From contig MGBH01000001.1 in NCBI GenBank assembly GCA_001790095.1, positions 360,001 to 392,000 on the forward strand: 32,000 nt of DNA, read 5' to 3'. Numbering within the stretch: the stretch's first letter is position 1; each line of letters opens with the position of its first letter. The notes beneath the pieces are model-generated. The model searched no databases and was not told where the DNA came from. It saw nothing but the letters and a program-made list of their open reading frames with translations. Shown here piece after piece: positions 13,977-28,187 of the stretch. The DNA is from Candidatus Saccharimonadota bacterium (GTDB lineage Bacteria > Patescibacteriota > Microgenomatia > UBA1406 > GWC2-37-13). A program made the translations under genes and the position numbers.

Positions 13977-15202
13977 TTCTTCAATAGCAGTCTTCTTATT
14001 AAAGTAATACTTACTATTATCATAAGATCTAAAACGATAAAGTACCTACAGAAAAACGATGAAGTGTTGGCAAACACAAAGAAGCTGTAGGTAAAGCACT
14101 TATTTATAAGGCGAAATACTAAAAATGTTGCAATAACCCCCGCAAGGCCCATAAGATTATGTTTACGGTTGTTTATATTCTTTGCAACAAGGAAGTAATA
14201 AAGAGAAGCTAGTATTCCCTCCACAAGCAGTATCTGCCACCATAGACAGTTACATGTTTCAATTCCCTTTACTTCACCGATCTGTTCCCTTGTTTCAGGG
14301 GGAGAAAGAGTTGGGGCGGGCGTACTTGTGATGGTGGTTTCACCAGCGACTTCACCCGCCGGCACTGCCGGTCCTCCAAAGAAAGTAGTGAAGAGACCTA
14401 AAACTCCGCCTGAGGGTGCAGACGATGAGCTTTGTGCAGAAGATGATGAGGCTGAGCTTTGTTGTTGACAGTCTGCATAGCGTATCGTGACAGTCTGTGA
14501 AGGGTATCCGTTGTCTGGCTCAGCTTTTACTTCATCGTCTGTTGAGTAGCTGTATCCCGCGACAGCCTTTCCGTCACTTCCTGTATTTACTTCTTGGACT
14601 GATCCTTTATAAGTAAACTTGACTTTTACTCCAGACTGGACAACCCCATTGTCTTTTAACTCCATAATAGCGTCAAAATTGGAGTTAGTACATGATGTGT
14701 AAAGAGAAGAGGTTTTACCGATGGGTTGATCGAGAAATCCTATGGAAAGGTCAAACTTGGTTGAGGTATTTTGATACTCATTTCCAGCATCAAGATCCAT
14801 AGATACAGTAAATGCAAAGGTTTCAGATGACCCATTTCCCAGACTTGTCAAAAGCTCTGTTTCACCGTTTGCATAAAATGAACTTAAAAGTCCAGACCAG
14901 GCTTGTGAACTGTCAGATCTGGTTATAGTAAGATGCATTACATGGTCAAGATTACCGTTGGTTACCTCATTTGATGAATCTGCTCCAACTTTTTGACTGG
15001 TACCGCTTGCATTTGTGATCTGAACCGTTTTTGTCATGGTTTTACCCGGATACCATACTTCTGATGAAGGGAAAAAATTCGTAATAATGGATGGAGTACA
15101 GTCAGAGCTTGTACAGGTTACATTTTCATCAGCCGCAAAAGCTGATTGGGTAACGATCAATAAACCAAACGTCATTAACAGTATCAAAAATATTTTTTTC
15201 AT
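13955..15202 (-). CDS. Secreted protein with an N-terminal TasA/camelysin-like beta-sandwich, a Cna-B-like domain, a Ser-rich linker and a C-terminal 3-4 TM membrane domain (candidate fibre anchor)
   Basis: Domain evidence along the protein:
- Classical signal peptide MKKIFLILLMTFGLLIVTQSAFA|A.
- ...PGKTMTKTVQITNASG...MDLDAGNEYQNTSTKFDLSIGF resembles the PGD...N.G... and gN.YQg...f.f.F.a.Q blocks of TasA/CalY.
- Linker SSASSSSAQSSSSAPSGG.
- Hydrophobic C-terminus (WWQILLVEGILASLYYFLVA, LMGLAGVIATFLVF, YFIVLDLMIIVSITLI).
The start overlaps the upstream stop as ATGA. The ORF is well supported; the function is tentative. Confidence 0.6.
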   Translation of the reverse strand: MKKIFLILLMTFGLLIVTQSAFAADENVTCTSSDCTPSIITNFFPSSEVWYPGKTMTKTVQITNASGTSQKVGADSSNEVTNGNLDHVMHLTITRSDSSQAWSGLLSSFYANGETELLTSLGNGSSETFAFTVSMDLDAGNEYQNTSTKFDLSIGFLDQPIGKTSSLYTSCTNSNFDAIMELKDNGVVQSGVKVKFTYKGSVQEVNTGSDGKAVAGYSYSTDDEVKAEPDNGYPSQTVTIRYADCQQQSSASSSSAQSSSSAPSGGVLGLFTTFFGGPAVPAGEVAGETTITSTPAPTLSPPETREQIGEVKGIETCNCLWWQILLVEGILASLYYFLVAKNINNRKHNLMGLAGVIATFLVFRLINKCFTYSFFVFANTSSFFCRYFIVLDLMIIVSITLIRRLLLKNQEGQTV

Positions 15203-18200
15203 GGTTTAGTCTCCAATAGTATTTCTTTGCCTTCTTTATCTGTCAGCACAACTGTTAATGTCAAATTCTCTGTATCTGTAAGTTTAGTGCACACACCTCC
15301 TGAGCATGTTTCAAGGATAATGCCTTTTGCTTCATACTTGTCCTGGCCAGATAATACTTCCTCCGACGAGGAATTATCCGCAATGATTTTTTTGGTCAAA
15401 CTATTTTCAAGCTTATAGGTTAATTCAGAATAGGCGGTAATGTTTTCCACTATAAATCCTATTGAGTCTTTGGTCTCTGAAAAAATGAGTATTACTTTTG
15501 GATTTTTATCAAGTGCAACTGTTGGCGCAAGAGTTAAAGTAGGGGTGGGTGGTATAGTTTGTTTAAGTTTACGATTATACGGCTCATTTTCCGATCGGTT
15601 TTCAACTCTTGGAGTGCCTCTTATATCTGATCCTGTAACCCCGACGGTAAAAAAGTCTGTATAGGATTGAGCATCAATACATGAGTACCAATTTAAAGGA
15701 TCCGTACCGTCTCCAGGTATTGAGGTACGCTCCATAGAGTAATATTTGAGATTGACAGCATCATATAATCCCTCACCTTCACCATCTGAAAGATTGTACG
15801 TGTAGTCCCAAGCTGAATCAAGCACGTTGTCTAAAGAATCAGTGAGTTGTAGTTGTAGGTGTCCTGCAGCCAAATCAACAGAAGTAGTTACAAGATCGGC
15901 TGTGACTAAAGGTCTCAGCTGACTATCTGAAGAGCCGGGTGTATAGTTTGCTATGAGATAATATCCACGAGCTTCAATGAAAGAAGATGGTAAAGTAATC
16001 ATATCTACATATGTTGATCCATTATATTTTTGAATCTTAAACCCAGTGAGATCAATCGTTCGATCTGTCATATTGCGAAGCTCAATCCATTCATCAGCAG
16101 AGGATACGCTTGAACCCATCCACATAAGCTCATTTATTATAAGATCGCCCGGTGAAACAGTTGTGGCTGGAGAGAGAGGTGTGGTTGTGCTGCTTGTTGT
16201 ATAGATGTCTGACCAATTTGGTGCTTCATCTGCAGCCTTTATTGCAAAATAATAAGTAGTAGAAGGATTGAGGCCCAAGATTTCAATTGTTTCTTCTAGT
16301 CCGGACTCATTAGGTACTGGGCTTTTGCCAGAGGATGTGGCCGTCTCAAAGTTGTCAAGATCAATGGGGGAAGTAGAATATCGTATATCATATTTTGCAG
16401 CCTTTCCTGACGCCCCGTCGTTGCCTGGTGCAGTCCATGATAATGTCGCTGAGTTTGCACCGATTTCATCCACCTGAAGATCTGTTATCTGGGATGGCGC
16501 TTGAGTGTCGGTTATGATCTGAACTCTATAGATCAAGCTCTCATTTCCTGCATTATCAACTGCCTTGTATTCAACCCAATGATCGCCGTGTTCTGTTACC
16601 TGAAATGTTGAGGGAGTTTGTTGCCATGATCCACCTCCAATGCGGTATTCGTAATGGTTTATGCCTGAAGAGGAGTCTGTACCTGATAAAGTATAGATAG
16701 CGTGACCTGGAGCTGATACAAAATAAGTGGTTATCGCATCTACGTAACCCCACGATTGACGGGTGTCATCATAACTGTTGCCTGCATAAATAGCTAGATT
16801 GATGTTTTCGCTATCAGAATAATTACTTAAATCATAGTAGAATTGTTGCCAACCGCTTGATGTTGCGATACCCACATCCGTATCATCAAGTACAGATGGA
16901 TCTAATTTAAATACCTCCTGACCATTTAACCGTATGAAGAAGCCCGGATCATCAAATGGAGCAAAATCATAAGACGCATAGTTATAGTGAAGGGATAAAC
17001 TTTTTGCCCCTCCGGATATCGACTGCATAAGGCGGTTTTCCCAAACTTTATTACCTTGATCGGTCGGATAGGTATAGTTGCCAATCTTTGCCATAGACAA
17101 ACCCTCATATGGATTGATTACCAGATCTGGTTCGGGAGACAATTGAGGAATGGTATCACTAGCTATGACATCTACATCTCCTGCAGTTGTCCAACCGTTC
17201 AATCCGTCTTCTAACCCACCATTAACAACTTTTTCCTCAACAGCCTTGGTATAGGATCCGGTTATCGAAAGAGAGACAGGAGATGGAGCAACACTATCGT
17301 AGACGATTGAACACTCAGAGGACCAGACAGAAATATTATTTGTTTTGTCATATGCTCTTACTTTATAGGTATGGACTCCTTGTCCTGCGTTGAAGACGCC
17401 TGTGTATTGTGAAGAGATGACAAAGGTACTCCATGTACCAATCGTCCCGTCTAGCTTGGGATAGGTGATAAAGTACTCGTATTTCTCTATTTGCCCAGGG
17501 AAAGGATCTATTACATTATCCCAGTCAGCAATTATGCTATAACTATTTGTTGCTCCGCCACAGGAGATGATAGTACCGTCTGCTTTTTTCCATAGCAGGT
17601 TGGTCGGCGCAGGGGGAGCGGTGTTGTCTACTATCACTTTCCAAGCAGGAGTCCAGTCGCTACAGTTATCCAATGTGTCGCAAGCCTTTACATGCCACCA
17701 ATATTCACCGTCCGGCGTGCCTGGAGCTGGTATTTGGGATGCGGAAAGATGGCCTGAAGTATATGCTAAGGGTGAAAATCCCGGATTTCTTGCACTTTGA
17801 TATATATAATAAACAGGGTTATGCATATCTTCATAATCAGTTACATCCGACCAATCCATAACCAATCCAGACGTATTTCTATATGAATTATTAGTAGGAG
17901 ACAAAAGAGTGGGTACGGGCGGAGGTACAAAATCTTTAACTGAAAATGTAACCCCCGACGCAGTAGAAGAGGATACAAAAAGAGCTCTCGATATCTCACT
18001 TACTCCATATATAACCAAGCCGTTTAATATAAAAGCAAGCAATATGACATTTTTTAGCAATGCTTTCCCTTTTTTATTCTTTGTTTTTTCAAGAACTTGA
18101 TTTGTACGTCTTTCTACTTCCTCATCAATACCCAGTTTTATTGTTTTTATCTGAAGAACAGCTAAAATCAAAGCAGGAAAAATCACAATTGCCGCAAACC

Positions 18201-18714
18201 CCTTTGGTGTTTTGATCAATGCCCCTATATGACCGAGATAGGGGACTGAAAAGAGAAACTGTCCTTTTATCATGGTTTGTGAGATGGTCCAGCTGTCGGG
18301 TGAGTTGTTATTATCTCCTTTTGTCATAAAGGTCTTTTCCTTCCCCGATTTGTTAACAGCGATGATTCTATGAAGTACGGTAAGTTTTGAGTCTTTAGGA
18401 GAAGTAAATGTTATTATGTCGCCTTTTTTGAGCTTGGTTGTCTCTGCGGGTTTTACAAATGCAACAGATCCTGCATGGATAGCCGATTCCATAGAGCCTG
18501 TGGCTACAATATATGTATATATATACTTCTTTGTGGGTAGAAGGGGTGAGAGGACTATGAGAAATGTAGCGATCAGCACGGCAAATATAGCCCACTCAAA
18601 TACTATGCCCACCGTCTTGAGTATCTTCCATACCTTTGCCGTATTGTTTTTTTCTACTTCTTTCTTAGCCATATAAATACTTATCTGACAGTAGGAAGCG
18701 GCGTCCCGCCTCAT
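15199..18714 (-). CDS. Fusion ORF: archaeal/ER-type signal peptidase I (SipW-like, S26B) joined to an internal SipW-class signal peptide and a ~920-aa multidomain passenger (FN3-like x3-4, CBM-like jelly roll, lamin-tail domain)
   Basis: SipW part (about aa 15-190, 18145-18672):
- TM helix, then ATGSMESAI (Ser box), VLHRII (His box), TKGDNNNSPD, then a second TM helix.
Junction (aa 213-256, 17947-18078):
- KKGKALLKNVILLAFILNGLVIYGVSEISRALFVSSSTASGVTF.
Passenger:
- Domain boundaries DNTAPPAP, DSVAPSP, DTQAPSQ.
- VVNGGLEDGLNGWT (CBM-like).
- LSWTAPGNDG...YDIRYS...YYFAIKAADEAPNWS (FN3).
- LIINELMWMG...DEWIELRNMTDRTIDLTGFKI (LTD).
The likely real start is ATG 18672 (MAKKEV). Confidence 0.8.
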   Translation of the reverse strand: MRRDAASYCQISIYMAKKEVEKNNTAKVWKILKTVGIVFEWAIFAVLIATFLIVLSPLLPTKKYIYTYIVATGSMESAIHAGSVAFVKPAETTKLKKGDIITFTSPKDSKLTVLHRIIAVNKSGKEKTFMTKGDNNNSPDSWTISQTMIKGQFLFSVPYLGHIGALIKTPKGFAAIVIFPALILAVLQIKTIKLGIDEEVERRTNQVLEKTKNKKGKALLKNVILLAFILNGLVIYGVSEISRALFVSSSTASGVTFSVKDFVPPPVPTLLSPTNNSYRNTSGLVMDWSDVTDYEDMHNPVYYIYQSARNPGFSPLAYTSGHLSASQIPAPGTPDGEYWWHVKACDTLDNCSDWTPAWKVIVDNTAPPAPTNLLWKKADGTIISCGGATNSYSIIADWDNVIDPFPGQIEKYEYFITYPKLDGTIGTWSTFVISSQYTGVFNAGQGVHTYKVRAYDKTNNISVWSSECSIVYDSVAPSPVSLSITGSYTKAVEEKVVNGGLEDGLNGWTTAGDVDVIASDTIPQLSPEPDLVINPYEGLSMAKIGNYTYPTDQGNKVWENRLMQSISGGAKSLSLHYNYASYDFAPFDDPGFFIRLNGQEVFKLDPSVLDDTDVGIATSSGWQQFYYDLSNYSDSENINLAIYAGNSYDDTRQSWGYVDAITTYFVSAPGHAIYTLSGTDSSSGINHYEYRIGGGSWQQTPSTFQVTEHGDHWVEYKAVDNAGNESLIYRVQIITDTQAPSQITDLQVDEIGANSATLSWTAPGNDGASGKAAKYDIRYSTSPIDLDNFETATSSGKSPVPNESGLEETIEILGLNPSTTYYFAIKAADEAPNWSDIYTTSSTTTPLSPATTVSPGDLIINELMWMGSSVSSADEWIELRNMTDRTIDLTGFKIQKYNGSTYVDMITLPSSFIEARGYYLIANYTPGSSDSQLRPLVTADLVTTSVDLAAGHLQLQLTDSLDNVLDSAWDYTYNLSDGEGEGLYDAVNLKYYSMERTSIPGDGTDPLNWYSCIDAQSYTDFFTVGVTGSDIRGTPRVENRSENEPYNRKLKQTIPPTPTLTLAPTVALDKNPKVILIFSETKDSIGFIVENITAYSELTYKLENSLTKKIIADNSSSEEVLSGQDKYEAKGIILETCSGGVCTKLTDTENLTLTVVLTDKEGKEILLETKP
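17947..18078 (-). other. Internal SipW-class signal peptide within the 1171-aa ORF
   Basis: It has a K-rich n-region, the h-region VILLAFILNGLVIYGV, then SEISRA|LFVSSSTASGVTF. This aligns with the N-terminus of the TasA-like protein (GGTAYA|LFSSSVTASGVTF). The DNA of the two segments is not similar, so conservation is at the protein level. Confidence 0.65.
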
Positions 18715-18738: not shown

Positions 18739-19299
18739 TTATGGCGCAACTTGAGTACCTGTGATCAACCAAGTTGTGGCAGTTGTTTTATTTGCTATGC
18801 TATTTCCTGCATCACTTGGAACCTGGACATAGATTCTCATCAATTTTTGCTCACTTTGAGCAAGTGTAATGGTGATATCTCTTTCTAAGGAATTCCAGTC
18901 TGCTAAGGTGTAGTATCCGCTACCAACAGCGCCTGCATCATCACCGATCCAAGCAGTGATAACTGGTGATAAGACACCCCAGTCACCGGTTGCTGCAGTT
19001 AGTCTTGCGCTTAAGCGAAGACTAATAGGCGATGTACTTGTGTTTCTTAAATAGAATTCGTTGTAACCGTTATATCCTGGATATAGATTCTGAAATGTGG
19101 TTGGAAAAGTTACATTTTGAGTCCATGTTGAAGCTGGTACGACGCCTGGTCCATTTGACCAAAACTCTAAGTTGGCATTACCAGTTGCAAACGTCACTCC
19201 GCTTGCCGTGACACTGCTTGAGAACAACGCATACGCTGTTCCACCGACAACAGCTGTTAACATAACCAATCCTAAGAATCCTGCTATTATTTTATTCAT
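18739..19299 (-). CDS. TasA/camelysin-like (Peptidase_M73 family-like) secreted protein with a SipW-class signal peptide; candidate major fibre subunit
   Basis: MNKIIAGFLGLVMLTAVVGGTAYALFSSSVTASGVTFATG parallels B. subtilis TasA ...LVGGGTWAAFND...ATFASGTLDL. The C-terminal block DAGNSIANKTTATTWLITGTQ parallels the TasA/CalY ...N.YQG....f.f.f.atQ end. It has the only strong SD in the window (AAAGGAGGTGA, 7 nt before the ATG). Confidence 0.7.
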   Translation of the reverse strand: MNKIIAGFLGLVMLTAVVGGTAYALFSSSVTASGVTFATGNANLEFWSNGPGVVPASTWTQNVTFPTTFQNLYPGYNGYNEFYLRNTSTSPISLRLSARLTAATGDWGVLSPVITAWIGDDAGAVGSGYYTLADWNSLERDITITLAQSEQKLMRIYVQVPSDAGNSIANKTTATTWLITGTQVAP

Positions 19300-19512: not shown

Positions 19513-20202
19513 TTATTTAGTGAGCTGCGCATCGACGATAAGCCGCTTAAATGTAGTACCTGGGGGCCAGCAAGTCATAAGACTTATTGTTTTTTTTGTT
19601 TTATCTTGTTTTAAATATTTAAGTTCACTTGGCTCAACGATCTTACTGCCTGTTACTTTATATTTGAATTTATCTCCTTTATAAAATAGATAAATATCGT
19701 CGTTTGTTTTAAGCTTAGTTAAAAGATAAAAAATAGCATTATATCTGTTTGCTTGATGCCAATTTGCAGCAGAATGCGCAAAGATAAAGGTATTGCCGTA
19801 TTCTCCAGGATATGCCGTGTCACGAGCATGCGCCACTCCTTTGGTAAGTTGTAACTGATACTCTTTTTCATTAAACGGGCTTACGTTGGCAATAACGGGT
19901 GAATTGGCACCTATCTTAGGTATCACTAATCCGTATTGTTCATCAACCGGTTCGATCACCTTATTACTTGTTATCAAGGTTGGCTTTTCTTCATTTTTTG
20001 AGAGGACAAGAAAATTGTTCACTCCTGGTTTTAAATAGAAAGATATTTCTTGAAACAAGACAGGATAATATATAAGAGTAAGAAGGACTAATCCGGCGGA
20101 AATAAATGCAAATCCACCGACCATCAACAAACGATGTATGTGATTTGGCTTAAAGCCATTCTTTTTTACTTTTTTCCGAATTTCTTTTTTTGTTTTTGAC
20201 AT
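19513..20202 (-). CDS. Sortase-family cysteine transpeptidase
   Basis: It has a basic N-terminus and one TM helix. Motifs seen: LVIPKIG, GNTFIFAHS (catalytic His), ISLMTCWPPGT (TLxTC-type catalytic Cys), KRLIVDAQL (Arg). Starting at 20202 overlaps the upstream ORF tail by 53 nt in an A-rich, Lys-coding stretch. Alternative start at ATG 20124. Confidence 0.85.
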   Translation of the reverse strand: MSKTKKEIRKKVKKNGFKPNHIHRLLMVGGFAFISAGLVLLTLIYYPVLFQEISFYLKPGVNNFLVLSKNEEKPTLITSNKVIEPVDEQYGLVIPKIGANSPVIANVSPFNEKEYQLQLTKGVAHARDTAYPGEYGNTFIFAHSAANWHQANRYNAIFYLLTKLKTNDDIYLFYKGDKFKYKVTGSKIVEPSELKYLKQDKTKKTISLMTCWPPGTTFKRLIVDAQLTK

Positions 20203-23200
20203 AATAAATAGCTCCTAAAATCAATGCTACTAAACCAAGTATGCTAAGTATAATCACCTTACGGTTAGCGACCCAGTTTAATGCATTAGAAAATACGTCT
20301 TTGTCCTTCTGAGTTTTCTCACCTAAGACACTTTCATTATTGTTAGATGTGTTTGCTCCGCTTGTTTCTTCTTGATTTACCTCTTCGGCACCTTGTACCT
20401 CTCCTTCAGTCTCACCTGCTGCAAGGGTGACATTGGTGACAGGAATTGCTCCGCCACCACCTGTGGTTGTCCCTGTACTTGTGCCGGGATTTGAGACAGT
20501 GGTTGTGGTGCCAGTGGTTGTAGTTGTGGTGGTTGTCACCGTGACACTATCTCCCACAAGACCTGAGCCATTGTCAGCACTATCAAAAGCTCTTAATACA
20601 TAGAAATAGGTTTTGTTACAGTCTCCGACAATATCATTATAGCTCCCATTTTGATTGGAACCAATAGATATTGTGGTACGTCTAGATCCTGAATCTGCTG
20701 TAAAGGAGGTATTTTCAGAACGATATACCTCTACTCTGGTTGTTTTGCCACCATCGTCTGCAGTGCGAAACATGATCTTGTATTCACAGGATGACACTTT
20801 TTCTTTTGCATAATTTGTCGGCGTACCTGGTCCGCTTGTATTATAGTCAACAGTTATGGTTTCACTCGTTGCAAAATCATCACTTGTTGTGGCTGTTGCA
20901 TAAAATTGAAAGGTACCATTTTCACTAATCATGCTTGATTCAAGAGGACATAATCCGCTGTTTCCGCCAGCTGTAACAGATATGTCACCACCTATTTGGT
21001 TATAAGCAGAGCTTGGCTTTTTCATGTAGCATCTTACGGTGACAGGTAAACCCTTAAGGTCCAATGTGACATAACCGAGATTAAAATCATTGATGCGGGA
21101 TGGGCTTTTTGGTTGTACAAGCCTCACGTGTAGATTAGTTACGGCTTGAACCCCACCGGAAACAGTTAAAAACAAAGCTGTTGCTATAACAAAAGCAGAA
21201 ATCCTCAAGGCAAATGTTTTTTTCTGGAATAAAGCTGAGATGAACATAGACAGTCCGATAAGTATCATGAGTCCTGATAGCATTACCCATATGCTTGGTG
21301 TGCCAGTTCCTGGCAGACCAGTTGAAGCACCAAGTACATCACCATTCTCAGTTACCTCTTTTTTTTCTTCTTTTCTCACATCTACACCAGAGGAATCTTG
21401 CTGGGTTTGATTTATACTTACTTTTGTACCTACAAATGTGTCAATTCCTGTAAACGTACCTGGGTCGACGGTGCCTGAATCTACGGCTTGAGCAAGCAGG
21501 GCGTCAGAGCTTTCAATGGTGCATTCGGTACTTGTTGTACACCCAACAGCCCATGCAAGATCTTTATAGAGTCCTGGTTTTTGACTACCATCAATTACGG
21601 CGGTATACACAAGTTCGATAATGTCCCCAGCATCTGTATCTCCAATCTGCCATTCACCAGGGGAATGATATTGAGGTTCTGGAATAGCAAACTCAACTCC
21701 ATTTTTATATGTTTTCCAGCTTCCAGCCTTATAGGTAAATCCGGAAGGTGGAAGATCAGTTACCACAACGTCCTTGACTCCGTAGTCTAATATCTTCAAA
21801 GTAAGTTTGTATACGACTTCATTACCAGGAGTTGTATCATTTGGCCACGTTGTATTGAATTTGGACAAAGTCATGTATGGTTCAATATGTCTGTTGCCGA
21901 TATAGCAATGGACTACTTCTCCCACATTAACAGTAACACTGTGAAGATTGTCATTGTCTTCATGTGATTCATCACCATCACAATACATGGTGGTTTGAGT
22001 CCATCCTGGTTGAGATTCAAGGTCTTCACTAAAATCATAGACACCCTCTGGTAGTTCAAAACTCACCTCACCGGATTCGGTAGTGGTCTTTATTACTTCG
22101 TTAAGAATTATATTCCAGCCTGATAAATAAGTATCAACATCCTGATCTATATATGAGTCGCCGTCAACATCTTCAAATTTGGTTACTATAACCTGTCCAG
22201 TTGTCGGGGTGACTGTTGGACCAACTTTAAAGTTATCAGTTTTTGAACAATCACTTGGGAAATCTGGGCTTGAGCTTACCCAAACCTTATATTCACCGCC
22301 TGGATTTGAAGTATCTGCAAAAGCTGTCAATTCAAAGAGGTTATAGCATTGTTCGAAACTACCATCAACCACTGTGATTGAAGGTGTGTTGCTTTGACCA
22401 AGCAAAGTGCCGTCTGGCTCAGTCACTTTTACATAATACTGCCCGTCAGGTAGACCCGATCCGTTACCGTTTGGCCCACCGTTCAAATAAACATCTGTCT
22501 TTAATGCGTAATTCACATTTTCATTTACCACTTCACAATACCTATCGGTTGTCCATACAGCTCCATTTAAGTGTTCACAGGATGGAGCGGATGAAGAGGA
22601 AGAAGAGGATGAACTCGAGGATGAACTCGTGGATGAACTTGAAGATGAGCTGCTAGAGGAGGAAGACGAAGATGAACTAGAACTACTTGAAGAAGAAGAC
22701 GAAGAGGTTGATGAACTACTTGAACTACTTGATGAAGAACTTGATGAAACAGAGGTTGGTGTTGGTGTTACTCCATTGATTGAATATACACAGTCTGAAG
22801 GATCCGAATTTGGCTCACCTGATGGATAAGAACAAACATCAAGAAGTGTAGCGTTTGTACCACCACCGATGTCAGCCATCTGTACTGTGCATGTTGCAAC
22901 AGCATCATCCGGGTAATGATCTCCTTCTGGGTCAAATGGATCATCTGGCAACACGCTTACAGAACAAGAAGAAGTATTTGTGATTTCAGTAGCTTGCATA
23001 CATCTGTCGACCCTATCATTCCTACATGAGTAAAGAACCAATGAATCAAATTCTGCAGGGGTGTTTGTAACTGACACACATAAAGAATAGTTTGCAAAAC
23101 CATCACCGTCTGTATCAAAGAGACTACATCCGTCTCCAGTATTTGCTCCTGTCCATCCTATTTCATCCCACTGCATTTTCATTTCAAAATAAACATCCAT

Positions 23201-24280
23201 TTCAGAATTATCAAAACACATACGAGTCATGTCTTTTTGACCTGGTTCATCATTGGGCCCTTCAGAATCTGCATAACATACCCAGTTTGCATCTGTGAAT
23301 GTTGTTGTAGCAACGAGTACGCCTAACTGGTCTTTTACCTCAACCTTATAGTTTGGTCTGTATATCCCGTCAAGCTGATAGGTATATGTGAATGTGCCAA
23401 ATGCGTCAGTTGTGGTTGATCCTACCGTATATACGGCTGGTGCATCGTCAGATGAAACCACTATGGTGTAGGTATAGCCAGGGGTAAAATTCTCACCCGT
23501 GATAACTGCTTTTTCAGTCGGAGCATAGTCACTCTTGTCTGTCCAAACTGATGGATCAACATATGCTTGATTATTGCTTTCAATTATTGTTATCTGTATT
23601 GTTTCATCGCCGGTTTCTAAATTAGCGCCCTGTGTGGGTGCAACAGTGACAGTAGGAGAAATCTGTGTTGATATGCCATCAAGTATTTCACCTTTTTCAA
23701 CTACTGTAGGAGTGGGCTGCAGTGCTGGGGTAGAAGTAATGGTTGGAGAAACTTCAAGATCCTTGCCATTTTCAATCCAATATTTTTCATCGTCTGTCAT
23801 CTCAGTTACAGAGCCGACCGTATCTTCTTTCTCGATTCTTATCTCACCATTTTCCAAAAGAAATCTTTGTATTCTAAACCAGTTCTGATTTGCTAAATTG
23901 ACTTTCAAAATACCTCTTGGAACAGTATGATTTATGCATGTTCCATGCGTTGAGCAGGTTTTTGCTTCCAGTTCCTTTATAAAATTTTCAATCCCAAGTT
24001 CAGTTTCACCTTGAACCGCCTCAATCTGATTAGTTGAGTTAGGAGAATCATTTTTGTAAAGAAGCGAATACGTAATTTTTCCTGAAGTAATGCTGTTTTC
24101 TTTTGTGTTTATCTCAAACTTAAACGCTCCTTTTTGACTTTCATATCCAAGTTTTACCGATAAAGGCTCAGATGAAAAAACGTACTGCGGTACGATATAG
24201 AGGTAGGGAGTAAGTGTGTTAAAAAGAAGAGATAAGATTGTTAAAAAGCCAAAAGCCTTGCGAAGAATTTTTTGTCTCAT
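20150..24280 (-). CDS. Giant surface protein with an internal LPGTG sortase signal (aa 989-993), followed by a second ectodomain and a C-terminal TM anchor
   Basis: Order along the protein:
- N-terminal signal-like helix.
- Ig/Big-like modules.
- A Cys- and Asp-rich region (DTDGDGF).
- A ~55-aa Ser tract.
- A Cna-B/SdrD-B-like module (VIVTKFEDVDGDSYID...GW...).
- A DUF11-like repeat (VTDLPPSGFTY).
- LPGTG, a 25-aa hydrophobic stretch and QKK.
- TFALRISAFVIATALFLTVSGGVQA.
- Two FN3-like modules.
- A Thr-rich linker.
- TM helix VIILSILGLVALILGAIYYV followed by KNKKRNSEKSKKEWL. Confidence 0.85.
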   Translation of the reverse strand: MRQKILRKAFGFLTILSLLFNTLTPYLYIVPQYVFSSEPLSVKLGYESQKGAFKFEINTKENSITSGKITYSLLYKNDSPNSTNQIEAVQGETELGIENFIKELEAKTCSTHGTCINHTVPRGILKVNLANQNWFRIQRFLLENGEIRIEKEDTVGSVTEMTDDEKYWIENGKDLEVSPTITSTPALQPTPTVVEKGEILDGISTQISPTVTVAPTQGANLETGDETIQITIIESNNQAYVDPSVWTDKSDYAPTEKAVITGENFTPGYTYTIVVSSDDAPAVYTVGSTTTDAFGTFTYTYQLDGIYRPNYKVEVKDQLGVLVATTTFTDANWVCYADSEGPNDEPGQKDMTRMCFDNSEMDVYFEMKMQWDEIGWTGANTGDGCSLFDTDGDGFANYSLCVSVTNTPAEFDSLVLYSCRNDRVDRCMQATEITNTSSCSVSVLPDDPFDPEGDHYPDDAVATCTVQMADIGGGTNATLLDVCSYPSGEPNSDPSDCVYSINGVTPTPTSVSSSSSSSSSSSSSTSSSSSSSSSSSSSSSSSSSSSSSSSTSSSSSSSSSSSSSAPSCEHLNGAVWTTDRYCEVVNENVNYALKTDVYLNGGPNGNGSGLPDGQYYVKVTEPDGTLLGQSNTPSITVVDGSFEQCYNLFELTAFADTSNPGGEYKVWVSSSPDFPSDCSKTDNFKVGPTVTPTTGQVIVTKFEDVDGDSYIDQDVDTYLSGWNIILNEVIKTTTESGEVSFELPEGVYDFSEDLESQPGWTQTTMYCDGDESHEDNDNLHSVTVNVGEVVHCYIGNRHIEPYMTLSKFNTTWPNDTTPGNEVVYKLTLKILDYGVKDVVVTDLPPSGFTYKAGSWKTYKNGVEFAIPEPQYHSPGEWQIGDTDAGDIIELVYTAVIDGSQKPGLYKDLAWAVGCTTSTECTIESSDALLAQAVDSGTVDPGTFTGIDTFVGTKVSINQTQQDSSGVDVRKEEKKEVTENGDVLGASTGLPGTGTPSIWVMLSGLMILIGLSMFISALFQKKTFALRISAFVIATALFLTVSGGVQAVTNLHVRLVQPKSPSRINDFNLGYVTLDLKGLPVTVRCYMKKPSSAYNQIGGDISVTAGGNSGLCPLESSMISENGTFQFYATATTSDDFATSETITVDYNTSGPGTPTNYAKEKVSSCEYKIMFRTADDGGKTTRVEVYRSENTSFTADSGSRRTTISIGSNQNGSYNDIVGDCNKTYFYVLRAFDSADNGSGLVGDSVTVTTTTTTTTGTTTTVSNPGTSTGTTTGGGGAIPVTNVTLAAGETEGEVQGAEEVNQEETSGANTSNNNESVLGEKTQKDKDVFSNALNWVANRKVIILSILGLVALILGAIYYVKNKKRNSEKSKKEWL
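21218..21316 (-). other. Complete cell-wall sorting signal (LPGTG, hydrophobic helix, QKK) at an internal position
   Basis: LPGTG is encoded at 21316-21302. TPSIWVMLSGLMILIGLSMFISALF and QKK follow, down to 21218. The ORF continues in frame with no stop. Confidence 0.8.
22589..22753 (-). repeat. Ser-tract coding region (aa 510-564; about 55 residues, nearly all Ser, interrupted by V and T)
   Basis: SVSSSSSSSSSSSSSTSSSS...SSSS then APSC. It uses mixed TCN and AGY codons rather than a pure trinucleotide repeat. The antisense frame gives a spurious E/D/L-rich ORF (22629-22829). Confidence 0.9.
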
Positions 24281-24502: not shown

Positions 24503-24982
24503 TTATGGATGATCGGGGTGAATAGGATGCTCAGGATGTTCAGGGTGAATAGGATGCTCAGGATGATCTTTTGATACTTCAGCAGAAGAGGATGAGGATG
24601 AAGATGTTGAAGAAGAGGAGTTGCTAGATATAGAGGTGGTAGGTTGCAAAGAACTATCCGAACCGGCTGATGTCTTAAGAGGGGTTGGAGTAATTTTTTG
24701 CGTAGTTTTTGTCTCTTCTTGTATTTTCTGGGATGAATCTGCTTTTGGCAACTTTGTAGCTATTATGCTTGTAGCTACTATTCCTGCAGTAACAACAGTT
24801 AGCAGCCGTTTGTTTGCGATTTTTTTAACTTTATTTAATATTCCTTTTGTCTGAGGTGGGAGTGGAAGATTATGCGCACAATGATGAAGAAGTGTGTTTT
24901 TTAGCGCCTGCCTTTGATTGTGGCCAAGGACAAAGCCTCCCTTTAGAGAGCTCAAATTGTGTATTAATTTTTTATCTTCCAT
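24503..24982 (-). CDS. Single-pass membrane protein translationally coupled to the ECF sigma (putative anti-sigma factor) with a Ser-rich linker and a C-terminal (HPx)7 tail
   Basis: The start overlaps the sigma stop by 11 nt. The TM helix is LLTVVTAGIVATSIIA. The extracytoplasmic part is SISSNSSSSTSSSSSSSAEVSK then DHPEHPIHPEHPEHPIHPDHP. I did not recognise a canonical zf-HC2 motif, so the anti-sigma call rests on context. Confidence 0.45.
   Translation of the reverse strand: MEDKKLIHNLSSLKGGFVLGHNQRQALKNTLLHHCAHNLPLPPQTKGILNKVKKIANKRLLTVVTAGIVATSIIATKLPKADSSQKIQEETKTTQKITPTPLKTSAGSDSSLQPTTSISSNSSSSTSSSSSSSAEVSKDHPEHPIHPEHPEHPIHPDHP
24516..24569 (-). repeat. 27-bp tandem duplication (2 copies) encoding the HPEHPIHPE/HPEHPIHPD repeat
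   Basis: On the plus strand, gggtgaataggatgctcaggatg is repeated at 24516-24542 and 24543-24569. The first 22 nt are identical and the last 5 differ. Confidence 0.85.
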
Positions 24983-25532
24983 TGTTTAGTATTTGTTTTA
25001 ACTTAGCGATTGCTCTATGTTGGGTCACTCTGACTGACTCTGGTGATTTATCGATAATAACTGCCACTTCCTGCACTGGCAAATCCTCAATAAAACGCAA
25101 AATGACGATTTCCTTATAATCTTGAGGAAGCTGCGCGATCGCCTCATGAAGCTTTTGACATTCATCATCTTTGGTCACCTTATCTAAAATTTCAGATTTA
25201 CCGTCATGTTTATCAAATTTTTCAAAAGTATCGATATTAGTTATATTCGTTTTTTTCTTATCATCAAAATAATCGTAAATCAAATTTCGTGCTATAGCGT
25301 ATAGAAAAGCCCGAAAATTGTCTTTTTTATATTTATATATATAACTCCAAGCTTTCTTAAAAGTTTCACTTACGATATCTTCTGAATCGGGTACAGAATG
25401 TAGTTGGATCATGCAGTAGCGAAAGATTTCATCGGATAAAAGCTCAAAGAGTTTTCCATACGAATCAATATCGCCTTTTTGGCCCAGTTTTACCAAGTTC
25501 TCAATATCCATCTTTGTATAAGACCTCGGCAT
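24972..25532 (-). CDS. ECF-type RNA polymerase sigma-70 family factor
   Basis: 186 aa. Region 2-like segment: DIVSETFKKAWSYIYKYKKDNFRAFLYAIARNLIYDYF. Region 4 HTH: YKEIVILRFIEDLPVQEVAVIIDKSPESVRVTQHRAIAKLK. Confidence 0.85.
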   Translation of the reverse strand: MPRSYTKMDIENLVKLGQKGDIDSYGKLFELLSDEIFRYCMIQLHSVPDSEDIVSETFKKAWSYIYKYKKDNFRAFLYAIARNLIYDYFDDKKKTNITNIDTFEKFDKHDGKSEILDKVTKDDECQKLHEAIAQLPQDYKEIVILRFIEDLPVQEVAVIIDKSPESVRVTQHRAIAKLKQILNNGR

Positions 25533-25559: not shown

Positions 25560-28187
25560 TTAGAGTTTTCTAACTTCTTTTACCAGTTCATTGACTGATT
25601 TGAGCAATATTTGAGCATAATTTAACCTATTTTGGCTTATCGAATATTCAGCTTGTTTTAGCCTTTTGTTAATTTCAATGAGAGTTTGAGTATTTTTTAA
25701 TATGTTTTTTCCTTTATTTTTCATGGATAGAAGAAATGTTTGAGTGGGAAGGTCTAACTTCTTAAGATTTCTTATGTCTGACTTGAGTTTAGAAGGAGAG
25801 ATTCCTATATTATATGAACCCATAACCTGATCATGTAAACGCTCTAATTTTTCAACAGCATACAAAACTTTTGCTCTCTCTTGTATTGGTAATTTATAGT
25901 ACCCGGAAAAAAGTTGCTGGTGAGAAAGAAGAAGAGTTGTTTTAAGTTTTCCCTTGTTCTGAACTTCGGAAAGCTGTTTTGAGAATTTTAAATTATTTAT
26001 CGCCTTTGTAATATCTGCCTTTTTAAAGGTTATATTTATATCTGAGAGATAAAGTATTAGTTCTTCAAAAAGTGTGGATGATGAAGACAATGAAAGTTGG
26101 GGAAACTGGTCGTCAAGCAAAAGAGTATAGATATCTGTTTGAGATGAGGGTGGATTTGCAGTGATTATTCCTTCGATCCGAGTCCAATAGTCTTTTTCTT
26201 CGGTCAGGCGACCTACCAGAATAGAATATCTTCCATTATCTTGTCCTGTTGCTCTTAATTCATATGAGTTTGAAAGAGCGTTTTCAATAAAAACAACCCC
26301 TTCTTGTTCTTGATATGTTTTACCTCCTACCCTTATCTCAAGTTTTGCTGGGGAAAGCATAAGAAATATAAGAGAAGGAAAAAGATTGGTTCTTTTTCCT
26401 TCTATAATATCTTTATCTTCGACTCCAATCTGCAATGTATCAAGCAGTTGCTTGATTGCATCTTTTGTGTAAATGAGCTCACCATGATCTTTTGAGAGGA
26501 TGATTGGATTTTCTCCACCTTTTGCGCTAACAGATGTGACAGTTAGATCACCCATGTCAGTCAATTTCTGAATCGGTCTACCGTCTGGATAATTATCAAG
26601 TAACTCATCTATAACATTTCTTTTTTTTACTACATATCCTGACGTAGTCATACCTTTTTCACCTGAAGTTGTTTGTAATATGTCAAATATTTGATTAAAG
26701 TTATCTTGATATCTTGAGAGCAGATTATTTTTGATTGCCATATTGGAGATTGAAATCACTTGAGACTCATCTTTTAAAAAATCTGTTGTAGGGATAAGGT
26801 TTTGAATTACCGGGAAGTTTTCTGAAAGGATTTGTCTATCGGTTTTTAATCCATCCTTATACAGCTGTAAAACAATTTTTTCAGCAAGCCAAAATAATGA
26901 ATTGTCAGTCTCAATCTCTCCTCCTTCTACTGCCATATAAGATTTTGCAATACCTTGATGAGGTGAACCAACTGTGACAAGATGTTCTATGTTTGTTTTT
27001 CCGTATTTTTGTGCGTATATACGACCTACTATACCACCGAGAGAATGACCCACTAGGTCGGCCGGTTGTTCAAGATGTAAATTGTTAATAAAAACATTCA
27101 ATTTATCAGCATTTGATTCGATATCTTTTCTCCAATCATAGTTAAAATAATAAAAGTCTTTGTTCTTTTCATACCCAAGATGTATTAATGTCTTTTCAAG
27201 ACCTTCGTATTCCTTGGCGATCGGATTAAGTATCCAGTCTTGCTGAAGAACGATTTTATTGTGAAGTATGGCATCTTTATTCCATGATCCAAGAAAACCA
27301 GGGATTATAATAATTGGATTTTTTTTAACTTGTTCAGACGAGGAAGCTCGGTTTAGACTCCACAAAGAGTTAATATTTTTGGCATAGTATAGATAAAGCG
27401 CGTTGTCTTTGTGCATTACAGAATGAAAACGCGGTGAATCGAAAACTATGTGTCGGTTGGTCCAGTTTGAGTTGCATGACGGTTGGCTAGTTGTCTCAAC
27501 AGTCTCAACACCATTGGGTGAGTGAAAAAATAAGTAATATATGTTATCTTTTTTAACAAGAGATTTTGGTGCTACATCTGCCTCAAGTAAGAAGTCGTGG
27601 CATTTTGTAAAGTGTATGCCATCTGTAGAATATGCAAAGCCCATTTTCCAGTTATTGCTTAACGCTGTATAGAAAAGATAGTAGGCTCCGTTTTCAAAAT
27701 AAATTGTGGGTGATGAGACTCCTGCCCATTCCCAGCTTTGCTCGGGCATAAGTACTGTTTGGAGGGTTGAAAGATCAAAATCGATTCCATTTGAAGAATC
27801 AATCCTCATAATACGCGTGTGCTGTCCGGGTGGAGTAGTGCCAAAATAAAGAACATAACCCTGCGGTGTCTTTAAAATAGATGGGTCATGAATATCTTGA
27901 TTATTTAGAAAATTGTACAATTTCTTTCTTTCCCAGTTGACATTATCTGTTGATTCACCATAAGCAAGACGCATCCCATTTCCCAAACTGGTATACCACA
28001 TCTTGTATTTTGACTCATCATATAAAAAAGAAGCCTGGATGATTCCAGCTTCCTCCCAGTTATAGTACTGGCCCGTAACATTAAGAGGATTTTCCTCATA
28101 CGGTATAAATGGTTCGAAAGCATATGTTTGTTTTGAACTAAACAAGGTTGTAAATAAAAAGAAAGCGACCAGTAGTATTTTTTTCAT
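25560..28187 (-). CDS. Secreted multidomain protein: N-terminal beta-propeller glycoside-hydrolase-like domain, LCAT/PGAP1-like alpha/beta-hydrolase (lipase/acyltransferase), and a C-terminal region of unknown function
   Basis: Domain evidence:
- Signal peptide MKKILLVAFFLFTTLFSSKQTYA.
- Repeated W/Y-rich blades (KMWYTS, YVLYFGT, YYLFYTA, YYLFFHS).
- IIIIPGFLGSW, FNYDWRKD (LCAT-family YDWR motif) and the nucleophile elbow GHSLGG (27033-27050). Confidence 0.7.
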   Translation of the reverse strand: MKKILLVAFFLFTTLFSSKQTYAFEPFIPYEENPLNVTGQYYNWEEAGIIQASFLYDESKYKMWYTSLGNGMRLAYGESTDNVNWERKKLYNFLNNQDIHDPSILKTPQGYVLYFGTTPPGQHTRIMRIDSSNGIDFDLSTLQTVLMPEQSWEWAGVSSPTIYFENGAYYLFYTALSNNWKMGFAYSTDGIHFTKCHDFLLEADVAPKSLVKKDNIYYLFFHSPNGVETVETTSQPSCNSNWTNRHIVFDSPRFHSVMHKDNALYLYYAKNINSLWSLNRASSSEQVKKNPIIIIPGFLGSWNKDAILHNKIVLQQDWILNPIAKEYEGLEKTLIHLGYEKNKDFYYFNYDWRKDIESNADKLNVFINNLHLEQPADLVGHSLGGIVGRIYAQKYGKTNIEHLVTVGSPHQGIAKSYMAVEGGEIETDNSLFWLAEKIVLQLYKDGLKTDRQILSENFPVIQNLIPTTDFLKDESQVISISNMAIKNNLLSRYQDNFNQIFDILQTTSGEKGMTTSGYVVKKRNVIDELLDNYPDGRPIQKLTDMGDLTVTSVSAKGGENPIILSKDHGELIYTKDAIKQLLDTLQIGVEDKDIIEGKRTNLFPSLIFLMLSPAKLEIRVGGKTYQEQEGVVFIENALSNSYELRATGQDNGRYSILVGRLTEEKDYWTRIEGIITANPPSSQTDIYTLLLDDQFPQLSLSSSSTLFEELILYLSDINITFKKADITKAINNLKFSKQLSEVQNKGKLKTTLLLSHQQLFSGYYKLPIQERAKVLYAVEKLERLHDQVMGSYNIGISPSKLKSDIRNLKKLDLPTQTFLLSMKNKGKNILKNTQTLIEINKRLKQAEYSISQNRLNYAQILLKSVNELVKEVRKL

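Follow-up and report, generated by a model that had tools for sequence, protein, structure and literature searches.

An Internal Sortase Signal in a Fused Surface Protein of Patescibacteria, a Probable Polyprotein

Introduction

Sortase substrates canonically carry a tripartite signal for sorting, made up of the LPXTG motif, a hydrophobic helix and a basic tail, at their C-terminus. Which products, then, are made from an open reading frame (ORF) of 1376 aa in which such a signal lies complete but internal, and which stays open for 355 codons past K1021? The question is raised by a locus of a groundwater "candidate phyla radiation" (CPR) bacterium on a stretch of 32,000 nucleotides (contig MGBH01000001.1, positions 360,001 to 392,000). 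The whole stretch is referred to as the window, and coordinates are those of the window. The ORF and the gene behind it are:

20150..24280, minus strand: whole fused ORF of 1376 aa (stop codon 20150-20152), read as adhesin, internal sorting signal, internal signal peptide and FN3-type membrane protein
19513..20202, minus strand: dedicated sortase with an N-terminal transmembrane (TM) helix and the catalytic motif SLMTC (aa 207-211); PF04203, 86.5 bits

We consider it probable that the ORF is a natural polyprotein, namely the fused version of a Patescibacteria gene pair that comes with its own sortase, and that its product would be cut by this sortase and by signal peptidase I. A sequence-only reading of the window had earlier proposed a genuine internal sortase signal and two products from one fused ORF. 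Comparative conservation supports this proposal, and from it we infer the cleavage. We take the arrangement for a genuine and widespread variant of the architecture of sortase substrates that seems not to have been described.

Sorting Signal and Predicted Signal Peptide at the Junction

A Kyte-Doolittle (KD) hydropathy scan with a 19-aa window finds exactly four hydrophobic segments in the ORF (aa 12-30, 994-1019, 1022-1048, and 1336-1363). The adhesin part and the junction comprise the following features:

24173..24280, minus strand: N-terminal export signal of the adhesin, about aa 1-36 (boundary approximate), with basic MRQKILRK and hydrophobic aa 12-30 (KD maximum 1.63)
21317..24172, minus strand: adhesin ectodomain, about aa 37-988, with a poly-Ser run and a C-terminal DUF11-like beta-sandwich
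21329..21337, minus strand: VLG motif, aa 982-984, an invariant element just before the LPxTG motif
21302..21316, minus strand: internal LPGTG sortase recognition motif, aa 989-993, conserved as [LM]PxTG and disordered in the AlphaFold2 (AF2) model
21227..21295, minus strand: helix 1, aa 996-1018, putative stop-transfer helix of the sorting signal (KD maximum 2.31; helix in AF2)
21203..21226, minus strand: predicted cytoplasmic basic loop QKKTFALR, aa 1019-1026 (net +3), which would act as the sorting signal's charged tail and also provide the n-region for the internal signal peptide
21143..21202, minus strand: helix 2, aa 1027-1046, internal and signal-peptide-like, ISAFVIATALFLTV-SGGVQA, with a predicted signal peptidase I site VQA/V (aa 1046/1047; the slash marks the cut)

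The residues behind the LPGTG motif read TPSIWVMLSGLMILIGLSMFISALF-QKK-TFALR-ISAFVIATALFLTVSGGVQA/VTNLHVRLVQPKSP. The sequence-only reading had described this motif (21316-21302), the hydrophobic stretch and QKK correctly. Its account of the frame beyond, as a signal-like helix, two FN3-like modules, a Thr-rich linker, a TM helix and a Lys-rich tail, is likewise confirmed. Within the window, the LPGTG of this ORF is the sole LPxTG with a hydrophobic tail. An LPxTG arises by itself in 3.6% of shuffles of the 1376-aa protein; chance is excluded because the whole arrangement is conserved in relatives. The AF2 model of aa 790-1240 shows a DUF11-like sandwich and then a 35-residue disordered stretch with VLGASTGLPGTG, followed by a helix (996-1018), a 2-residue break (Q1019-K1020), a second helix (1021-1039) and a low-confidence, unstructured SGGVQA. 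The Gram-positive anchor model PF00746 remains below its cutoff of 20 on aa 781-1024 (10.9 bits, E 0.47), and TIGR01167 (LPXTG_anchor) does not report the internal signal.

Helix 2 can be aligned to the signal peptides at the N-termini of stand-alone homologs of about 320 aa. Its geometry comprises a basic KK..R n-region, a short h-region (about 14 aa here) and a c-region with helix-breaking SGG or P/G residues. Under the same scoring, (V/A)-x-A follows helix 2 in 61 of 87 fused representatives, compared with 5/87 for helix 1 and 6/70 for helix 3, an enrichment of about 10-fold. Ala occupies position -1 behind helix 2 in 32/39 fused loci and 76/87 representatives, versus 31/32 split forms; 11 of the 87 lack it. 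This conservation argues that signal peptidase I still cuts behind helix 2 in the fused forms. Both elements lie outside their usual places: the predicted internal signal peptide starts at about aa 1020 of 1376 and not at the N-terminus usual for a Sec signal peptide, and the LPGTG signal is not at the extreme C-terminus, as is also the case in 96 of 150 family representatives.

Fused and Split Forms of a Conserved Cassette

The family was covered by an exhaustive profile search over 1.84 billion cluster representatives, and 80 species-level loci from GTDB genomes were compared. The profile search yields 1015, 673 and 512 family representatives at E<=1e-3, 1e-10 and 1e-30, respectively. A search with aa 1025-1376 found more than 200 homologs of these C-terminal 352 aa, nearly all of them stand-alone proteins of 310-345 aa from Patescibacteria; similarity to the second moiety of the ORF is 40-62% identity across 90-98% of the 352 aa. 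The stand-alone homologs begin with M-(K/R)-signal peptide-AxA and continue with ...LSVRLEQPKSPTNQ... As judged by these homologs, the C-terminal 352 aa are a Patescibacteria-specific protein family of its own, for which Pfam and NCBIfam contain no model.

The family belongs to a cassette. The order LPxTG surface-protein gene, second gene, sortase is found in 78/80 loci, relatives of the adhesin occur in 77/80 (tblastn), and in 78/80 the second gene is followed by a sortase gene at a distance of -16 to +154 nt, the other two loci having no downstream DNA. The first two genes are separate in 41 of the 80 loci. At 35 of these 41, the upstream gene ends with LPxTG, a helix and RRKYA before the stop codon, or similarly. 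In these 35, there is an 8-nt overlap between the stop of the adhesin gene and the ATG that follows (ATGNNTAA, e.g., ..KYA-stop with MLK..), and LPxTG is located at exactly -103 nt in most of them. A GGAGG-type Shine-Dalgarno (SD) sequence lies in the Arg/Lys codons (RRK) of the sorting-signal tail in 27/39 split loci. At L010, L012, L017, L029, L032 and other split loci (at about 5960-6010), the same nucleotides encode the membrane-retention signal and form the ribosome-binding site.

In the remaining 39 loci the two genes are fused, with an upstream frame open for up to 2000+ codons. Among the best 150 family representatives, 96 are fused; they are 410-3052 aa long (median 1709) and the domain is always C-terminal. 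Two longer homologs (P0049 and P0104) have the same internal layout of LPATG, helix, KKK, helix and domain, and fused forms of about 700 aa are found in candidate division WWE3 and Moraniibacteriota. Databases label the fused forms "hypothetical" or "DUF11 domain-containing". All fused loci contain two hydrophobic segments between motif and domain, with a median length of 24 aa for helix 1 and 8 aa for the loop between the helices. The motif, 38-84 aa before the domain, is LPxTG in 33 loci, MPxTG in five and degenerate in one. Among the representatives, [LM]PxTG is present within 110 aa upstream of the domain in 95/96, the remaining one having FPATG. T and G of the motif are invariant in alignment A2, and so are V, L and G of the upstream VLG; 75/75 loci and 83/87 fused representatives have [VIL]LG no more than 12 aa ahead of the motif, and the VLG stands 5-8 residues before LPxTG in all adhesins examined. 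To judge by this conservation, the LPxTG of the fused forms is under selection.

A neighbor-joining tree of the domain (76 taxa) shows that the fused and split states are clade-specific, with a minimum of 6 switches and all-fused clades of 14-15 deeply diverged taxa. Going by record titles, the fused form prevails in Roizman-, Shapiro- and Woesebacteria and the split form in Levy-, Gottesman-, Davies- and Collierbacteria and Saccharimonadales. The alternative offered by the sequence-only reading, that two genes have been fused, is true historically, as other lineages have this pair as separate genes that overlap by 8 nt. The same reading had asked whether orthologs form one ORF or two. Both occur: a stop is present in about 36-50% of them, in separate clades, and not in all orthologs, the finding that would have made this locus two ordinary genes.

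One fused locus, L072 of a Moraniibacteriota genome, has the degenerate motif VLGAATGTETSW without L-P about 90 aa before the domain start (6001). Its QPK Lys is replaced (IPESP) and its sortase is retained. This lineage may have changed or lost sortase processing.

The Two Moieties and the Sortase

The DUF11-like beta-sandwich of the adhesin spans aa 803-929 (21494-21874) and is modeled by AF2 with a predicted local distance difference test (pLDDT) score of about 90, with a weak DUF11 match (E 0.0097). A Pfam scan of the whole 1376-aa ORF gives no match, and segment-wise scans give only weak matches to DUF11, SdrD_B and Gram_pos_anchor. The middle part of the adhesin contains a near-pure Ser run with few Thr, about 55 residues long (about aa 507-566, about 22580-22765, minus strand). 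This run could be a flexible or glycosylated spacer and probably explains the empty whole-protein result. Fused homologs contain PF01345, PF17802, PF17210 and PF19403.

The second moiety consists of:

20543..21136, minus strand: two beta-sandwich (Ig/FN3-type) domains, aa 1049-1246, predicted to be extracytoplasmic (AF2 pLDDT>90; four near-invariant Cys)
20297..20533, minus strand: disordered linker rich in Thr, Gly and Glu, aa 1250-1328 (AF2 pLDDT<50 at gene-2 residues 226-304), with a VLG inside (SVLGE)
20153..20257, minus strand: helix 3 (aa 1342-1361; KD maximum 2.59) and a Lys-rich, predicted cytoplasmic tail (aa 1362-1376; net +4)

AF2 models this part with pLDDT>90 at residues 25-222 as two beta-sandwiches, followed by the disordered linker and a C-terminal helix. 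The best PDB matches in Foldseek are the tandem FN3 domains of integrin beta4 (E 9e-8), and by sequence the Pfam fn3 model is not significant on this moiety. C60, C87, C141, and C197 (gene-2 numbering) are conserved to about 100% in 151 sequences, fused and split, with two Cys per beta-sandwich. This implies one disulfide per domain. As the four Cys are conserved in both states, the moiety is predicted to be extracytoplasmic. CPR genomes are reportedly enriched in cell-wall-anchored disulfide oxidoreductases (PMC6744442).

The end of the second moiety (VLG...W-TM-KK) resembles the sorting signal of the adhesin without LPxTG. A VLG precedes the C-terminal TM helix by about 13 residues (about 20300-20330, minus strand, here); 98/117 stand-alone homologs have it in their last 75 aa, against a background of 0.04 per 75 aa. 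The models LPXTG_anchor and Gram_pos_anchor match only the TM and tail part of the moiety, and only faintly. The resemblance suggests that the second moiety is a permanently membrane-anchored paralogous module, and the VLG motif in both moieties suggests that the element recognized is a longer one or that the two anchors share an ancestor. A pilin-type acceptor Lys was sought in the 151 sequences and none is invariant (K34 of the QPK motif 75%; K135 96% K and 3% R). An intramolecular isopeptide bond (K135, D152, N213) was considered and dropped by sequence pattern, the residues belonging to ordinary FN3 signatures (Y..RA.D..GN.S).

The sortase gene, which the sequence-only reading had placed directly behind the ORF, overlaps its end by 53 nt. 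Besides PF04203 (cutoff 26.6), its product matches TIGR01076 with 61.4 bits (cutoff 39.35). None of the sortase class models reaches its cutoff: class C scores best (70.7 versus 160), followed by D (46-50), E (42.7) and F (19.6). Given the conserved motif and the sortase gene that every fused locus retains, the economical explanation is that sortase uses the internal signal. Sortases are near-universal in Microgenomates (PMC6744442).

Proposed Processing and Alternative Explanations

The sequences themselves show the ORF with its conservation, the cassette, its two genetic states and the conserved motifs; we infer the topology, both cleavages and the functional partnership as follows. The N-terminal signal would export the adhesin moiety of about 950 aa until helix 1 (aa 996-1018) stops the transfer, leaving the short KK..R loop in the cytoplasm. 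Helix 2 (aa 1027-1046) would then act as an internal signal peptide and restart export, now of the two Ig/FN3 domains, and helix 3 with its Lys-rich tail would anchor the C-terminus. The adjacent sortase would cut LPGT/G and transfer the adhesin to an envelope acceptor, and signal peptidase I would cut VQA/V after aa 1046. This would yield an adhesin attached by sortase and, next to it, a type I membrane protein, the same two products as from the coupled genes of split lineages, with a helical hairpin of about 53 aa left over. The sequence-only reading had expected a remnant of about 380 aa after cleavage. A membrane protein would indeed remain, but probably as a type I protein of about 330 aa besides the hairpin, as helix 2 keeps its peptidase site. 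Either fusion or the 8-nt overlap would enforce 1:1 co-synthesis and co-insertion, which makes the second protein most likely a partner that acts together with the adhesin and the sortase.

Several points weigh against this reading. The call of the signal peptidase site is based on a simple -3/-1 rule and control helices, and an internal signal peptide behind a hairpin partner may be cut inefficiently. The window contains no canonical LepB, and the sole nearby S26 enzyme, which is of the SipW-like kind, probably acts for the TasA-like gene beside it. The junction contains a run of seven A (A7), and the frame that lacks one A soon reaches a stop, which leaves some room for a slippage-derived product. 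Furthermore, most of the genomes are metagenome-assembled, and homopolymer errors could misclassify a few loci, although not whole clades.

The main alternative, in our view fairly unlikely, is processing by sortase only. Helix 2 would stay uncleaved and the remnant (aa 993-1376) would be a three-helix membrane protein whose FN3 ectodomain is tethered at both ends. The evidence from the internal signal and the conserved sortase applies to it equally, internal signal peptides sometimes stay uncleaved, and the -1/-3 residues are poorer in a few fused sequences, among them the 11 of 87 without Ala at -1. However, (V/A)-x-A after helix 2 is kept nearly as in stand-alone signal peptides, about 10-fold over the controls, and a short h-region followed by SGG or P/G breakers is what cleaved signal peptides have. 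It is very unlikely that the internal LPGTG is an unused relic, with an intact polytopic protein that displays two ectodomains and a sortase that serves other substrates. The degenerate motif of L072 would fit such a relic. Yet the near-universal motif of the fused representatives, with its invariant T, G and VLG, and the sortase beside every fused locus argue against it, the window holds no other LPxTG substrate, and decay would be expected over the depth of the all-fused clades.

Other alternatives concern the expression of the frame. The A7 run (21217-21223, minus strand) encodes QKK exactly at the junction; with one A fewer, the frame would read ...FQKKHLP and stop after 5 codons, its TGA overlapping TTG 21208, which, if used as a start, gives MRISAFVIATALFLTVSGGVQA, a clean signal peptide. 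The fusion could thus be accompanied by separate products, made by slippage on the Lys-codon run (A7 to A6) or by initiation at ATG 21247 or TTG 21208. In line with such mixed expression, the loop codons contain A-runs of at least 6 in 22/38 fused loci, the deletion-frame stop comes somewhat earlier than in the background (median 7 versus 13 codons), and a loop Met is kept in 22/37. A-runs are, however, expected from Lys codons at 37% GC, the difference in stop distance is modest and the statistical signal weak, and L059 and L047 are fused without an A-run. Moreover, no SD precedes ATG 21247 or TTG 21208, ATG 21268, which lies inside helix 1, has only a weak AGGA, and an SD-like motif before the loop Met is found in 1/37 fused loci, compared with 27/39 before split-gene ATGs. 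Internal initiation in the fused forms thus appears unlikely, since the SD is absent here and has been lost in the fused lineages, and we regard mixed expression as a whole as quite improbable. The in-frame ATGs at 21283, 21268, and 21247 from which the sequence-only reading had derived a nested product do exist, as does TTG 21208, but the nested product itself is not supported, given the same loss of the SD.

Two ordinary genes joined by a 1-nt error or by a recent A7 mutation in this genome only would be an extremely improbable origin of the frame. One A fewer would restore a stop three codons on, overlapping the TTG start, and this made a homopolymer frameshift at A7 a suspicion. It was rejected on the grounds of independent assemblies and fused relatives. 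The identical 1376-aa product is found in 36 blocks of the assembly collection, independent assemblies included (ENA ERZ27254749, a Rifle ANAN16 scaffold, NCBI GCA_001790195.1), and the Rifle ANAN16 assembly (L002) has the same junction although its sigma-factor gene is broken elsewhere in the locus. All of the nearest relatives, L004-L006 (57-62% identity) and L026, have the fused form although their junction sequences are different, so the fused state was inherited here and is no private frameshift. In addition, the junction shows neither an SD nor the ATGNNTAA overlap, unlike the split loci. The polyprotein with two cleavages hence remains the reading that we favor.

A further proposal goes beyond processing and is, in our estimate, distinctly unlikely. 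The second moiety might serve a Patescibacteria-specific sortase pathway as its dedicated partner. Once both enzymes have processed the polyprotein, the adhesin would go not to peptidoglycan but onto this membrane-anchored FN3 protein, or would be retained by it, with the shared VLG involved in recognition. The pair would then form a membrane-rooted two-subunit "mini-pilus" for host attachment.

Neighboring Genes

Genes for an extracytoplasmic function (ECF) sigma factor, a TasA-like protein and a SipW-like peptidase, which lie near the cassette in only 1-5 of 80 loci, were rejected as parts of the system, as they are not conserved with it. Downstream, a 186-aa protein (18739-19299, minus strand) has a SipW-type signal peptide (GTAYALFSSS; TIGR04088 15.1 bits, just below cutoff) and a faint camelysin/TasA-like match. 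It is directly followed by the gene of a 1171-aa protein (15199-18714, minus strand) with an N-terminal SipW/archaeal-type signal peptidase I (TIGR02228, 103 bits) and OmpL47-type barrel, FN3 and lamin-tail domains. The two could be a TasA/SipW-like fiber pair whose peptidase fusion is unusually large.

Directly upstream of the adhesin, the gene of the ECF-type sigma factor (24972-25532, minus strand) overlaps a 159-aa gene (24503-24982, minus strand) by 11 nt. With its single TM helix, its Ser run and the HPEHPIHPEHPEHPIHPDHP repeat at its C-terminus, the 159-aa protein is a candidate anti-sigma factor. The ANAN16 assembly (L002) has the sigma gene split into pieces of 64 and 103 aa. Further upstream, an 875-aa secreted protein (25560-28187, minus strand) combines a GH130/GH43-like beta-propeller with an alpha/beta hydrolase of the PGAP1/LCAT/palmitoyl-thioesterase type; its relatives occur in only 6/80 loci (tblastn).

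Implications

Hundreds of divergent Patescibacteria proteins, mostly 1,000-3,000 aa long, contain the complete sorting signal internally, and annotation rules that demand a C-terminal signal overlook such proteins. The fused and split pair is a Rosetta-stone case that ties an uncharacterized, CPR-restricted membrane protein to sortase-mediated surface display. If the favored reading is true, the ORF would encode a rare bacterial polyprotein that is processed by two different envelope enzymes. To our knowledge, the Patescibacteria cultivated to date are attached to host cells. Together with the near-universal sortase of Microgenomates, this makes the cassette a testable candidate for the attachment apparatus of Patescibacteria.

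Comparison With Known Systems

In the literature that we covered, neither internal LPXTG signals nor the present cassette are described, which is suggestive only, as the coverage is incomplete. Like a canonical sortase substrate, the window ORF has a complete signal (LPGTG, a helix of about 23 aa and a KK..R tail), an N-terminal export signal and an adjacent cognate sortase, and its homologs contain stalk-type domains (DUF11, SpaA, SdrD_B). It differs in that the signal is not C-terminal, the basic tail doubles as n-region, VLG precedes the motif and the anchor hidden Markov models stay below cutoff. Closest is the split cassette (L007, L010, L012 and others), which has three orthologous components in the same order, the second being a protein of about 320 aa with signal peptide, two beta-sandwiches and a TM helix. 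Unlike the window, it has two ORFs with the 8-nt ATGNNTAA overlap, an SD in the RRK codons and a truly C-terminal sorting signal.

Sortase-assembled pili of Gram-positive bacteria are built by a class C sortase from pilins, among them the basal pilins SpaB, EbpB and PilB. Class C sortases typically have a C-terminal TM helix, whereas that of the cassette sortase is N-terminal. The cassette resembles pilus loci in its dedicated sortase beside the substrate, its Ig-like subunits, class C as the best model and a second, membrane-proximal Ig-domain protein. In contrast to pilus loci, its second protein has neither an LPxTG nor an invariant pilin-type Lys, and its sortase scores far below the class C cutoff. 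Pilins are among the many Ig/FN3 matches of the second moiety in Foldseek; these structural matches are generic. The Pam pilus (10.64898/2026.03.03.709456) was considered and set aside, since such pili form by donor-strand exchange and not by sortase. The cassette is thus not a demonstrable pilus system.

With regard to processing, the polytopic precursor would resemble polyproteins of the FbcH type in that its parts are separated at an internal site of signal-peptide type on the outer membrane face. It would differ in that its upstream moiety ends in a sortase signal, so that two envelope enzymes would act. The cytochrome b/c1 precursor FbcH of Bradyrhizobium japonicum, reportedly described by Thony-Meyer and colleagues, is said to be a bacterial polyprotein with an internal signal peptide, and viral envelope polyproteins are cut by host signal peptidase. 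Finally, a proteobacterial dedicated sortase system, defined in NCBIfam/TIGRFAMs, consists of one target and accessory membrane proteins. The cassette is similar in its fixed set of one sortase, one target and one conserved accessory protein; here, however, the accessory protein is unrelated, the system is restricted to Patescibacteria, and target and accessory protein are either fused or coupled by the overlap of their genes.

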